Assembly: GCA_951406725.2 (NCBI GenBank)
Contig: OX597828.1
Span: 6,386,001-6,450,000 of the forward strand
Reading direction: 5' to 3'
Source: Octopus vulgaris
Lineage: Eukaryota
DNA length: 64,000 nt
A program made the position numbers and the translations under genes. Positions 23,906 to 60,324 of the stretch are shown here, in pieces. The stretch's first letter is position 1. Every line of letters begins with the position of its first letter. The notes under the pieces were generated by a model, which made no database searches, was not told the origin of the DNA, and worked only from the letters and a program-made list of their open reading frames with translations.

Positions 23906-24779
23906 TATGCGTGGTTTCATCAATAAGTATCCGGACTTTTACCATACTGTTGAACCTAAAGCACGCAGAATAAAGCCGCTTGGCACAGTTTGACCTTCAA
24001 CACTGCTGTGCATGCAATCTATGTTTTAATGTTCTAGCTCACTTCCACTGTTTACAGAAGTGCTTGGAAGGAAGGTGTGTAGCGTGTGGGCGTTGCATTG
24101 AACATGACAGAAAAAGTTGAGTAGAGAATTTGCATCAAATTTTGTCTAAAGCTTGGCGAAACCTGCTGAGAGGCCTACGCAAGGTTTTCGAAATCGTTTC
24201 CTCGTTCTCGACACAATGAAGGATGTCATGTGCAACTAAGACCCGAGTGTCTTTCTGGTTCGCTGAAAGCAGTTTTGACACAAACTTGGCTGACACCTGT
24301 CTCGTACCTAAATCTCGAGTGATAATGGATTGAACTGAACCGTAACTAATCTGCACATCCTCTGATATCTCACGGATGTTCATTCGACGATCTCCGCTCA
24401 CAGTTGCGTGCACATCTGCGATGTTTTTCTCAGTTCTGCTGGTTACAGGTCTCCCAGAACATTCGTCGATATCGTCATTCTTTCGACCAGCTTGAAATAG
24501 TCTGAACCACCCGTGCACTAGTGTGCGGCTCATACACATCCTTCCATATGCTTTCTGCAACTTTGCGTAGGCCTTTGAGCAGGTATAGCCATGACAACTT
24601 TCCCTGTGACGGTCAATGCGACGTTCACTCACTACACACGTTCCTTCCATGTACTGCTGTAAACAACGGAAGTGAGCTCGAAAGTTAAAATTTCAAGTCA
24701 ATCTTTGCCAAGCGGCCTTACTCTGCGTGCTTTAGCTTCGTTACTAAGGCAATAGTCCAGATACTTATTGACCAGATCT

Positions 24780-32522: not shown

Positions 32523-32527
<5 letters not shown>

Positions 32528-32855
32528 ATGGCTCAGTAGTTAGAGCGTCGAGCTTACAATCGTGAGGTTGTGAGCTCGAATCCCGGACCGGGCTGCGTGT
32601 TGTGTTCTTGAGCAAGACACTTTATTTCACGTTGCTCCAGTTCACTCAGCTGTAGAAATGAGTTGCGACGTCACTGGTGCCAAGCTGTATCGACCTTTGT
32701 CTTTCCCTTGGATAACACTGGTGGCGTGGAGAGGGGAGGCTGGTATGCATGGGCGACTGCTGGTCTTCCATAAACAACCTTGCCCGGACTTGTGTCTAGG
32801 AGGGTAACTTTCTAGGGGCAATCCCATGGTCATTCATGACCGAAGGGGGTCTTTT
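32523..32855 (+). mobile_element. SINE family C (tRNA-derived, single copy here)
   Basis: Box A tggctcagtagttag, box B-like gctcgaatcc, central gtgttcttgagcaagacactt...cagttcactcagctgtagaaatgagt, distinct tail. Confidence 0.8.
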
Positions 32856-32934
32856 ATAGGTACTGTAAATTTAGGGTGAATACTTGATAAGTGTAAGCAC
32901 CTGTATATGCCAGATAGTGGCAGAAGTGAAAGAG

Positions 32935-33390
32935 AATATATAAAATAAAATTAAAAACAGAACACCAAGGCTATAGCGGTACACGTGTTTCAAGCTTTAT
33001 AAATAATCCGTTCTTACATCAGTGTAAAATTGATATAAAAGATGGTTTAAAGCTCTCTTCAGAGTAACTCTATGTTGAATGGTGATACAGTATGGGTAGA
33101 TTTTCGAAATCCAATGAATCTTTATACATTTATACAGTTAGGAGGTGTTACCAATACACTTTCTCAGGGAGATATGATATACCTATTATAATGGGTAATA
33201 CTACATGTACTTTTCATATTTTTTATAGTGTGATGTAACTCTTTGGAATAACAATGTTTGCGGTTCAAGAGAGCTTTAAGCTATCTTTTATATCAATTAT
33301 ACACTGATGTAAGAACGAATTATTTATAAAGCTTGAAACACATGTAACGCGACATCCTTTGTGTTCTGTTTTTAATTTTATTTGATATAT
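32935..33390. repeat. Inverted repeat (about 130-bp arms), each arm a partly decayed long-stem-II hammerhead
   Basis: Arms 32935-33066 and 33260-33390 are reverse complements; composite gcgg-CTGAAGA-gagcttta...taaagctt-GAAA-cacgtg-TA-ccgc. Confidence 0.75.
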
Positions 33391-33409
33391 ATATATATAT
33401 ATCAAATAT

Positions 33410-34277
33410 AGAGAAAAGAAGTTTTTGGTAGGATAGAATTATTTAATATTTAATTCTTATGCTTTCCTAAAAACTTGATTTCGAAACGTACGTCCGTAGA
33501 TAACTTAAAATTGTATGATAGATTGCCGTCAATTCATTCTCTCTTACCTGTTTGTGTCTGCCTTCCAATTGCTGTTTTTACTGAGATCTCCCTTTTTAGT
33601 AGAAGAAATAGCTATACCTCTTTGACTGCTATTTCTAAATTCGGTATGTGGTAAGGCAATTCGTTGCTAAACCCTTTATTGCTTAGTATTACTTAAATTT
33701 TCCTCGAATGAGGCTTTTACATGCCGAAGACTACTTGGTGTAATTGATAATTATTCCAAATTAATTAATTTCACCCTTCATTATTACGGATAACCATATT
33801 TTATCTCAGTAGATGACCACAGCATCTTGTTTTGGCTACACGCGGGTGGGAAGGGGCTGGTGACACAATCTTTTCATTCACACATTGAATTTGGTGATAC
33901 TAGTTGCGGATTCTAGCTCGCTCTGATACTGAGTTGAGTTGATGCCTTCTTGTATCTCAAAATTCAATATATAATCATTTATGATTATAGTATTCTACGC
34001 TGAAGAGAAAAGAAGTTTTTGGTAGGATAGAATTATTTAATATTTAATTCTTATGCTTTCCTAAAAACTTGATTTCGAAACGTACGTCCGTAGATAACTT
34101 AAAATTGTATGATAGATTGCCGTCAATTCATTCTCTCTTACCTGTTTGTGTCTGCCTTCCAATTGCTGTTTTTACTGAGATCTCCTTTTAGTAGAAGAAA
34201 TAGCTATAACTCTTTGACTGCTATTTCTAAATTCGGTATGTGGTAAGGCAATTCGTTGCTAAACCCTTTATTGCTTA

Positions 34278-34281
<4 letters not shown>
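33410..34281 (+). mobile_element. Partial tandem (1.47 units, 594-bp period) non-coding retrozyme/pLTR-like element
   Basis: Direct repeats 33410-33689 and 34004-34281 differ at only three positions seen; flanked by (TA)n on both sides; no ORF. Confidence 0.8.
33995..34093 (+). ncRNA. Type I hammerhead ribozyme, canonical core, 70-nt stem II
   Basis: Stem I ctacg/cgtag; CTGAAGA 34000-34006; stem II G34007..C34076 (gaaa/tttc, aagtttttgg/cctaaaaactt, gaatta/taattc); GAAA 34077-34080; palindromic stem III cgtacg; GUC site at C34088. Confidence 0.88.
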
Positions 34282-34326
<45 letters not shown>

Positions 34327-58136: not shown

Positions 58137-58539
58137 TATGTAAGCTCGCTTAAGTTCTTCATGCTGGATACGTGCTCTCTCAAAAGTGTCGATCTCTTCC
58201 TTAACCTGCTTCCTCCATCATTGGCGATGACAGGCATTGTTCTCCCAGTCAGTGTCCTGTATGTCAAAAGCCTTTAACGAGGACTTGACACAGTTATTAA
58301 ATCGTAACCTTGGTTTCTGCCGGAGTCTCCTTCCATTCACAAGTTCTCCATAGAGCATCTGCTTAGGAATCCTTCTATCCCCCATTCTAATAAGGTGTCC
58401 AGTCCAACGCAACCGGCGCTTGTGTACCATCGCCTCAATACTCAAGATATCAGCTGTCCTCAGGATCTGTGTGTCTGGAATTTTTGAGGTCCAGCCAACA
58501 TTGAGAATGTGTCTGAGACATCTCTGATGAAAAGGACCC

Positions 58540-59880
58540 TTACCTGACGTTTGTACAGAGTCCATGTCTCACACGAGTAGAGAAGCGATGTCAGTACACA
58601 AGCACGGTACACAGAAACTTTTGTTCTCCTTGCGATGCCATGTTGGGACCAGACACGAGACTGAAGAGACCGGAAGGAATTAGTTGCTCTCTGCAACCTG
58701 AAAGATATTTCCTCATCCAGGGAGCAAGAACGGCTGAGTGTGCTGCCCAGGTAGACAAACTTGTCTACTACCTTCAGAATTGTTCCTTCAACCAAGATAG
58801 CTGGTTCTATATATGGATTTCCTGGTGCAGGCTGGAACATTACAACAGTCTTGTCCAGGCTAATGCTGAGGCCAAATGCCCAGCAAGAAGCAGAAATGCA
58901 ATTCATGAGTATTTGCATGTCATCCACTGTATGAGTGACTAAGTCACAGTCATCTGCATAAAGGAGGTCACGAATAATAGACTGGGAAACCTTTGAATTG
59001 GCAGCAAATCGGCGAAGATTAAAGAGGCGGCCAGAAGATCGATATCTGACATATATTCCCAGAGAGCTAACCTTAGCAAAAGCATGAGTAAAGGCAGCAG
59101 CAAAGTACAAAGAAAAGAGAGTTGGGGCAAGGATGTCACCCTGCTTGACACCATTCTCTACAGGAATGGGTCCCGCCATGACACCACCAACATTGACCCA
59201 AGCCTCCATCCCATCAAGAAATGATTTAATTATAGATACAAAATGATCCGGACATCCAAGTTTGCCAAGTATTTTCCATAGAAAGGCCCTATTTACAGTA
59301 TCAAAGACCTTAGTTAAATCAATGAATACCTGGACAAGATCCATTTTCTGCTCATAGCACTTTTCCTGCATCTGTCTTGCTGTGAAAATCATATCCATTG
59401 TCCCTCTACCAGATCGGAAGCCACATTGAGATTCAGATAGGACATCATTTACGAGACACCCATTCAGACGGGTAAGAAGAATATTTGCCAGAACCTTGCC
59501 AGCAGCTGATAGCAGAGCAATACCTCTGTAGTTACCACACATTGTTCTGGCTCCTTTTCCTTTATATAGAGGAAGAATAATTGCATCCTTCCAGTCCCTA
59601 GGGATTGCACCATCCCTCCAGACTGCACTAATAAGTTCATGAAGGGACTGTGTGATGCAATTACCACCAAATCGCAAAACCTCGGCACAAATTCCATCCT
59701 TTCCAGGTGCCCTACCAAGATTCAATTTACTTATTGATGTCATTACTTCATGTATTGATGGCGAGGAGTCTAAGGAGTCAATGATAGGTCTTTGTTTCAT
59801 AGTATCAATCACTGTTTCATCCACAAATGACTCATGGTTTAGGAGTTCAGAGAAGTGTTCGATCCAGCGACCTGTGATTT
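58540..59880 (-). CDS. Uninterrupted RTE reverse transcriptase reading frame (no native start; frameshift near 58535)
   Basis: ORF track 58460..59905; continuation in 58218..58565. Confidence 0.85.
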
Positions 59881-60324
59881 CTGTTGAGCAACAAGTGCAG
59901 TGCATCTTTCAGGCCTGCAATCATTCCTGTTGTCCAACAAAGTACGCACATTCCAACATGAAATGTTTAAGTTCCGTCCAGATTTTATCGATAAAAGACT
60001 CTTTATTTTTCGAGCGCAGGGTGGACATCCGTCAGTCGCGCTAAACTGACTAGATATGGAACGACAGGCAATTTTTGGTTCACCTTTTCTAGAACCTCCC
60101 CGGTCTCCAGGTGAGCAATGCCCTCTCCAAATGGAGCTGCTCAGACACCCATGCAGCAACCGAATCCTACCGCTGTCTTGGGCGACAAGGAGACGACTTT
60201 ATATCTAGCATGGGCCGCCTACGTGCAGGTCGCTGACTACATGCTTCCAACCCGTCAGGTCTGCATGCTTCACCACCTTCCCATCGCTGCAGGACTTCCG
60301 AATAAAAAAAAATAAAAAAATGAA

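Follow-up and report, generated by a model that had tools for sequence, protein, structure and literature searches.

The genome of Octopus vulgaris harbours a young, dispersed and non-coding 594-bp tandem repeat in which each unit carries one predicted type I hammerhead ribozyme, and the reading that we favour, with a probability of roughly 0.7, is that of a non-LTR retrozyme for which a Penelope-like element (PLE) supplies the reverse transcriptase and GIY-YIG nuclease that copy it from circular RNA into (TA)n tracts. The copy from which the family was defined lies in a window of 64,000 nt on contig OX597828.1 (positions 6,386,001 to 6,450,000), and the initial annotation of that window, made from the letters alone, had proposed a candidate retrozyme recently inserted after about 1.5 rounds of copying around a 594-nt circle. 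Much of that proposal has stood up, including the retrozyme reading itself, which agrees with dispersed tandems lacking an ORF, with one hammerhead per unit and with covariation of the hammerhead helices. The insertion (Table 1) holds 1.47 units and consists of two direct repeats (33410-33689 and 34004-34281) that are 594 bp apart and are distinguished by one substitution and one 2-nt indel. It is also, as had been described, flanked by (TA)n and devoid of an ORF, the longest stop-to-stop frame within the element being at most 66 aa. The first repeat begins at the fifth letter of the CUGAAGA box, in keeping with the truncation that had been placed there; of the two hammerheads in the window copy, one is complete and the other truncated. 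The first cut site of this copy would probably be cleavable only in a double-hammerhead pairing, and, with a single complete hammerhead, the locus may be a dead end. The unit has a GC content of 34.5 % and folds strongly, with a z-score of -6.6 against shuffles as a linear molecule and, for the predicted circular fold, a minimum free energy of -155 kcal/mol and a z-score of -8.3 (against 20 shuffles).

Table 1. Features of the insertion in the window, with positions counted from the first letter of the window
Feature	Positions	Strand	Remarks
(TA)n target, left	33386..33402	.	7 unrelated bases between tract and element
Whole insertion	33410..34281	+	1.47 units; begins, by 5' truncation, at unit position 510; 3' end is the family's fixed end (unit position 193-195)
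5'-truncated hammerhead	33410..33500	+	Stem II, GAAA, stem III, predicted cut after C33494 and 3' strand of stem I present; CUGA and 5' strand of stem I absent
Full 594-nt unit between two predicted cut sites; putative circular RNA	33495..34088	+	
Terminal domain common to five related families; putative binding and priming element for the reverse transcriptase	33598..33792	+	
Second fixed end (unit position 290-305); putative second start site of reverse transcription, ~100-nt tail	33784..33799	+	Used elsewhere by one arm of inverted insertions
Complete type I hammerhead	33994..34095	+	
70-nt stem II: 4-bp basal helix, 2x2 internal loop, AU-rich extension (predicted)	34007..34076	+	Final A of the loop invariant across five families
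First fixed end; putative start site 1 of reverse transcription	34270..34281	+	Last letters overlap the (TA)n target by 2-3 nt
(TA)n target, right	34279..34323	.	

The complete hammerhead displays the features of type I, namely the core CUGANGA, GAAA and UH, three helices and an open stem I, and thus conforms to what the initial annotation had described. Stem I pairs 33994-33999 with 34089-34094 (6 bp); the CUGAAGA box (34000-34006) is followed by stem II (25 predicted pairs), GAAA (34077-34080), CGUACG (34081-34086) and UC (34087-34088), with stem III and its loop at 34080-34087, an unpaired U1.7 at 34095 and the predicted cut after C34088. The short palindromic stem III of the annotation holds as far as the 8-nt palindrome is concerned, but as a monomer this stem is predicted to have only 2 bp closed by a GUAC loop, full pairing of the palindrome being expected only in a dimer. 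The dimer duplex has a predicted energy of -9.8 kcal/mol, and the predicted ensemble contains the monomeric stem III at a very low probability (p about 0.04). Since the folding z-score of the hammerhead by itself is modest (-2.0 and -2.7 in two computations), the case for the ribozyme rests on the covariation of its stems, which the annotation had proposed as a check. In 13 sequences that represent five families, pairing holds in 93.5 % of cells, and two-sided changes occur at 8 of 13 pairs, including five of the six pairs in stem I, two of the four at the base of stem II and the core pair C3-G8, which is U3-A8 in family C; slid controls yield 1-3 such pairs. A shuffle control gave 0/500, which overstates the significance and is not a probability, since the 13 sequences are related. 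The U3-A8 core variant is known in hammerheads of Schistosoma PLEs (PMC4209133). Within the focal family, conservation is not significantly higher in the hammerhead than in the rest of the unit (1/30 versus 62/564 positions; p=0.15), and a strict tandem-motif pattern, which misses the GUGC loop variant, detects two tandem hammerheads in 25 of the 40 insertions that were sampled.

The length of stem II varies greatly among the families, being 27-28 nt in C and I, 52 nt in G, 59-60 nt in B and 70 nt in the focal family. Hence, the atypical, giant stem II of the initial annotation is confirmed in its size but is best read as an elaboration of something ordinary. In all sequences except one decayed G copy, the predicted fold of stem II opens with a helix of 3-4 bp followed by an internal loop, and both U1.7 and the last A of that loop are invariant (13/13 sequences); because this arrangement recurs, the giant stem II is likely a canonical 4-bp basal helix and internal loop to which a hairpin has been added. 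The same two bases form a minimal tertiary contact between stems I and II in a published account, although there the contact was not essential in the authors' own assay (PMC11875169). At the base of stem II, unusually, an A stands opposite an A in families C and I. Rfam hammerhead models gave no match at the window locus (E≤5) and none in nine related or PLE loci (at the gathering score). Standard models thus overlook such hammerheads, much as the annotation had expected of motif searches, and the miss is probably caused by the long stem II. Additionally, four unrelated type I hammerhead candidates, with a stem II of 57-97 nt and a palindromic stem III, were seen at L039:445-545, L068 (minus strand), L097:460-596 and L121:754-868; the L097 candidate is present twice, about 560 bp apart, and a hammerhead-shaped fold is predicted only for L097 and L121. 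Given at least four unrelated candidates with a long stem II in under 1 Mb of DNA, searches based on Rfam or on capped helix lengths likely undercount animal hammerheads.

A search of the octopus's own genomic DNA (2.8 Gb, 227 contigs), in which the best 40 of 2087 candidates were scored, returned 106 matches at 96-100 % identity, including tandem copies, and so the locus is not single-copy. The candidate numbers of these DNA searches (1600-2100) are not copy counts, and the 40 insertions, being the best matches, over-represent long, close copies whose end coincides with that of the query. They are separate insertions over more than 20 contigs, i.e., the family is dispersed and mobile, and they contain 1.41-9.09 units each, with up to 5.92 in one arm. 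Four sister families were reached through weaker matches: B (601 bp), C (555 bp) and I (562 bp), all of them tandems free of ORFs, and G, for which no full tandem unit was seen. Over unit positions 101-300, the focal family is identical to B, C and I at 174, 146 and 127 of 200 positions, respectively, and over positions 301-490 at 144, 76 and 86 of 190. The former stretch, which bears both fixed ends of the insertions, is the best conserved of the unit, and this domain of ~200 nt is for that reason a putative recognition element for the reverse transcriptase. At L132:355-480 there is an older, decayed unit related to the focal one, its hammerhead broken, and three matches to the family G terminal domain, spaced ~200 bp apart at G000:C26:37556455-37557017, perhaps represent a mini-unit lacking a hammerhead. 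A 511-bp spacing on C28 was considered as a unit length and rejected as a local duplication.

The insertions have a distinctive anatomy. In 39 of 40, (TA)4 or more is present on both sides, compared to 6 % of random window positions; target-site duplications are unreadable inside such tracts. Among the insertions with a single orientation, 17 of 18 end at unit position 191-195, an end that the query selected for. The other 22 contain two orientations, and in 18 of these an end at 189-204 is paired with one at 290-305, both facing outward and with a 5'-to-5' join between them, a pairing for which there was no selection; the exceptions are L008 (591), L128 (169), L137 (185) and L135 (two pieces 73 nt apart). 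In family B, for which the query was biased to the long end, 14 of 19 inverted loci have an opposite arm that stops at 187-197. The distance between the two outer fixed ends, or 'tail', is ~100 nt, and an ACCCT motif is located ~12-25 nt upstream of both ends. Published PLE insertions are likewise partial tandems with an inverted 5'-truncated copy, a tail of 30-40 bp at one end and (TA)n targets (PMC8557442), and the PLE tail has been traced to two internal start sites of reverse transcription on an RNA without homology to the cut DNA (PMC11167929). Outward-facing pairs of fixed internal ends on inverted arms have been called unique to PLEs (PMC11167929, PMC8557442). A coding PLE family in the same genome has a like anatomy, with a 40-nt tail (L064, L066). 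The focal family therefore has the features of a PLE-type non-autonomous element, i.e., a partial tandem with an inverted 5'-truncated arm and two fixed ends that presumably mark start sites of reverse transcription, with a tail of ~100 nt instead of 30-40, and it is from this anatomy that we infer a PLE driver.

The surroundings of the window copy contain other repeats. Adjoining its left side, at 32870-33390, is a separate, older multi-copy element (84-96 % identity to 39 other candidates) with inverted arms at 32936-33059 and 33267-33390; its outer ends are unequal, with an ACCCT motif close to the long one, and it may be another PLE-type non-coding insertion. Directly after a further (TA)n tract, positions 32524-32850 are occupied by what we take to be a tRNA-like SINE. 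Elsewhere in the window, labelled by eye, are a 482-aa LINE reverse-transcriptase-like frame (58460-59908, minus strand) and a 185-aa mariner-transposase-like frame (24135-24692, minus strand).

Evidence concerning the template comes from the haplotypes of the units. The substitution distance is 0.38 % within an insertion (332 unit pairs) versus 1.74 % between insertions (13,794 pairs), and, with a neutral rate of 0.0036 per Myr (PMC13282606), the former translates into at most about 0.5 Myr; together with the high identity of the genomic matches, this bears out the claim of a recent insertion. Private variants, meaning those absent from the other 39 sampled insertions, fall into three groups: 20, spread over 11 of the 40 insertions, are fixed in every covering unit (15 of them in both arms), seven are common to some units only, and 80 occur in single units, where errors of reverse transcription, later mutation and assembly error are indistinguishable. 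Variants fixed throughout an array imply either passage through a monomer with subsequent re-expansion or conversion. All 136 cut-site junctions are without indels, 102 being identical and 34 having a substitution, mainly the loop variant GUGC. Such joins would be more readily produced on a covalent circle than by jumping from end to end on cut linear RNA, and the sharing of haplotypes and the seamless junctions fit rolling-circle reverse transcription of one circular monomer. Only 2 of 64 5' ends are at the cut site, i.e., there is no pile-up (p=0.25). In L008, L002, L143 and L088, one arm stops 3 nt before the predicted cut, and three 5' ends lie 2-3 nt after it; these near-cut ends are a possible trace of cut linear templates, at a frequency that is not significant in family A, the focal family. 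The units of L138, an insertion of nine units, have different haplotypes, a mosaic that possibly reflects template switching between circles, and two adjacent units of L131 have variants in common.

Nevertheless, an uncut linear multimer would also give seamless joins, and an alternative that we judge unlikely is that the family is mobilised by a PLE from linear read-through transcripts of its arrays, with the hammerhead a passenger or active elsewhere and the units homogenised by gene conversion or local duplication. This account fits the seamless junctions and the absent 5' pile-up as well as a circle does, it accommodates both the L138 mosaic and the neighbouring units of L131, and uncleaved RNA was the dominant substrate of an anole PLE in vitro (PMC11167929). 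However, conversion that had fixed new variants array-wide in 11 of 40 insertions would have left 80 single-unit variants unconverted; recurrent 5' truncation would presumably shorten the arrays in each generation unless they were re-expanded from a monomer; and the covariation of the hammerhead across five families is at odds with its being a passenger.

As to the source of the enzyme, the focal element has no ORF for a telomerase-like reverse transcriptase with GIY-YIG and is thus not an autonomous EN+ PLE. The same genome contains young families encoding both domains, with intact frames of 781, 775, 784, 753 and 1008 aa. All four coding PLE families that were checked have the CX2-5CxxC linker, which is assigned to Neptune and Nematis (PMC8557442), and minimal hammerhead-like motifs are found near the 3' ends of coding PLEs, by pattern match in two of eight families, with further ones seen by eye. 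Very young PLE families are represented in L107-L116, L206 and L233; for the 775-aa family, every one of 76 scored copies has 100 % identity across the query, many copies score equally in the 753-aa and 1008-aa families, and the 781-aa family has a second ORF upstream. The unit has no sequence in common with the roughly ten coding PLE families sampled through GIY-YIG and protein searches (by blastn and profile; 0/35 and 0/13 loci in two of the comparisons), its terminal domain is absent from their 3' ends, and a search of public proteins for a partner yielded homologues from other organisms only. Likewise, a coding element carrying the 594-bp repeat was found neither among the best 40 of 2087 candidates nor in the sampled PLE loci. 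Matches in L038, L057, L076 and L112 were considered as signs of a PLE partner and rejected, since they are separate short insertions of sister families beside a PLE; three such apparent partner matches (four stretches), when followed, led to further non-coding families.

Given that no PLE sharing the terminal domain was found among about ten coding families sampled, the enzyme might stem instead from another (TA)n-targeting retroelement, e.g., a LINE of the Dong/R4 type, although we consider this very unlikely. Dong/R4 LINEs target microsatellites. They have also been recently active according to a survey of octopus repeats (PMC13282606). Against their involvement stand the twin outward ends on inverted arms, an arrangement ascribed to PLEs only (PMC11167929, PMC8557442) and present in a coding PLE of this very genome. 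It is highly improbable, too, that the unit is a mere pseudo-LTR of a coding PLE outside the sample; hammerheads do occur in PLE pseudo-LTRs (PMC4209133) and the matches scored were the best 40 of 2087 candidates, but up to 5.9 units run directly one into the next without coding sequence, nearby matches to PLE proteins fall outside the insertions, and families B, C and I consist of ORF-free tandems as well. Lastly, a satellite derived from the truncated end of a PLE and enlarged locally through unequal crossing-over, a scenario outlined in 10.64898/2026.07.22.740005, would explain head-to-tail arrays whose units are closer to each other than to those of other arrays, but is largely refuted, and scarcely credible, in view of short arrays scattered over more than 20 contigs, each in its own (TA)n tract, which share their ends and whose inverted arms agree in haplotype.

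For a retrozyme copied from circular RNA by a PLE enzyme, the following cycle may be envisaged. An array would be transcribed, its hammerheads, acting singly or as double hammerheads via the palindrome, would release 594-nt monomers, and a host ligase would close these into circles. A PLE protein would bind the conserved domain of ~200 nt and nick a (TA)n tract, whereupon cDNA synthesis would begin at one or both internal sites (+193-195, +290-305) with the aid of 2-4 nt of TA microhomology, and reverse transcription would circle up to ~6 times per arm before resolution through 5' truncation or a 5'-to-5' join of two arms. Concerning the ribozyme's part in this cycle, insertion by a PLE reconstituted in vitro did not require hammerhead cleavage (PMC11167929), and eight of nine predicted Xenopus retrozymes did not cleave (10.64898/2026.07.22.740005). 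The octopus unit is covered by assembled contigs from four runs (three tentatively taken as RNA, the fourth of unspecified kind), and two of them span the cut site; ends and circles are not visible in such contigs, which do not count as evidence of expression. A splice-donor-like GGTAAGA (GGTAGGA in the window copy, at 34021-34027) is located inside stem II in families A and B, a GGTAAGA-like donor is located upstream of the hammerhead in family C, and in all three families the cut site is followed, at a distance of ~104 nt, by a pyrimidine tract with AG (window 33575-33599). PLEs carry introns in their 5' UTRs. A spliced joint was not seen in the contigs examined, among which one from run X10 departs from the element at 34018.

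Going further, and with distinctly less than even confidence, we would suggest that these families form a clan bearing the scars of rolling-circle reverse transcription on single circular RNAs by a dimeric PLE enzyme that engages two sites ~100 nt apart on one circle. Recognition would occur via a structured element of ~200 nt whose sequence is missing from every coding PLE of the genome, which would make it a case of mimicry rather than descent, and stem II would have been extended beyond an internal loop that keeps the tertiary contact. If this is true, a large pool of animal ribozymes is invisible to current searches. The focal family would offer direct genomic footprints of PLE copying in the form of twin ends, inverted arms and arrays that are clonal at birth, as well as a candidate cis element whose exact start sites can be examined in the published in vitro PLE assay, and it indicates that, in a single clan, the length of stem II can increase from 27 to 70 nt.

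Judged by those features that can be assessed from sequence, the element appears to belong to the non-LTR retrozymes, a known class. The initial annotation's suggestion that the family may be undescribed is compatible with the literature consulted, which covers few subscription journals: neither this family nor a PLE tail on any retrozyme is described there, and no animal type I hammerhead is reported with a stem II of 70 nt. In the relevant part of PMC13725137, a 'long helix II' denotes 6-8 bp, and, for the giant squid, the pertinent section of PMC6962438 gives only counts of Rfam hammerhead matches. The octopus repeat survey has no ribozyme or retrozyme in its supplement or in the text parts examined (PMC13282606), and its library may contain the focal repeat under another label. 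Copying of animal retrozyme circles by PLE enzymes has been a hypothesis since 2014-2020 (PMC4209133, PMC7229834, PMC7761336), and the papers that propose PLE-driven copying of circular retrozyme RNA note the lack of any motif that would indicate the driver (PMC7229834, PMC7761336).

The animal non-LTR retrozymes described so far resemble the octopus family in being non-coding tandems with a GC content under 45 % and one type I hammerhead per unit, in having a 2-bp stem III with a tetraloop and a strongly self-paired unit, and in coexisting with PLEs (PMC7229834, PMC7761336). They differ in having units of about 150-450 nt versus 594 nt, and a stem II of about 4-5 bp versus 70 nt (PMC7229834); elsewhere, retrozyme units are given as 51-972 nt (10.64898/2026.07.22.740005). 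Furthermore, their circles have been demonstrated (PMC7229834), whereas the octopus family is known from genomic sequence, and in them no conserved motif is reported that points to a driver (PMC7761336), whereas here there is a conserved domain of ~200 nt and two fixed ends. With EN+ PLEs of the Neptune/Nematis type, the family has in common partial tandems, an inverted 5'-truncated arm, a tail at one end and the (TA)n target (PMC8557442, PMC11167929, PMC4209133), as well as a hammerhead upstream of the start sites of reverse transcription (PMC11167929, PMC4209133), and the U3-A8 core variant of sister family C is also known from PLEs (PMC4209133). Unlike those elements, it has no ORF, a tail of ~100 nt rather than 30-40 and a full rather than minimal hammerhead (PMC8557442, PMC4209133). 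The non-autonomous PLEs of Chlamys, such as MRC1, generally have 3' ends in common with autonomous families and mostly lack canonical hammerheads (PMC8557442), and on both counts the octopus family is different. Finally, Xenopus retrozymes have also been proposed to be non-autonomous derivatives of PLEs; in that case, the link is based on similarity to pseudo-LTRs and on co-occurrence, and the arrays are suggested to grow locally (10.64898/2026.07.22.740005), whereas in the octopus the link is based on the anatomy of the insertions, and the haplotypes argue for arrays that were made at the time of insertion.
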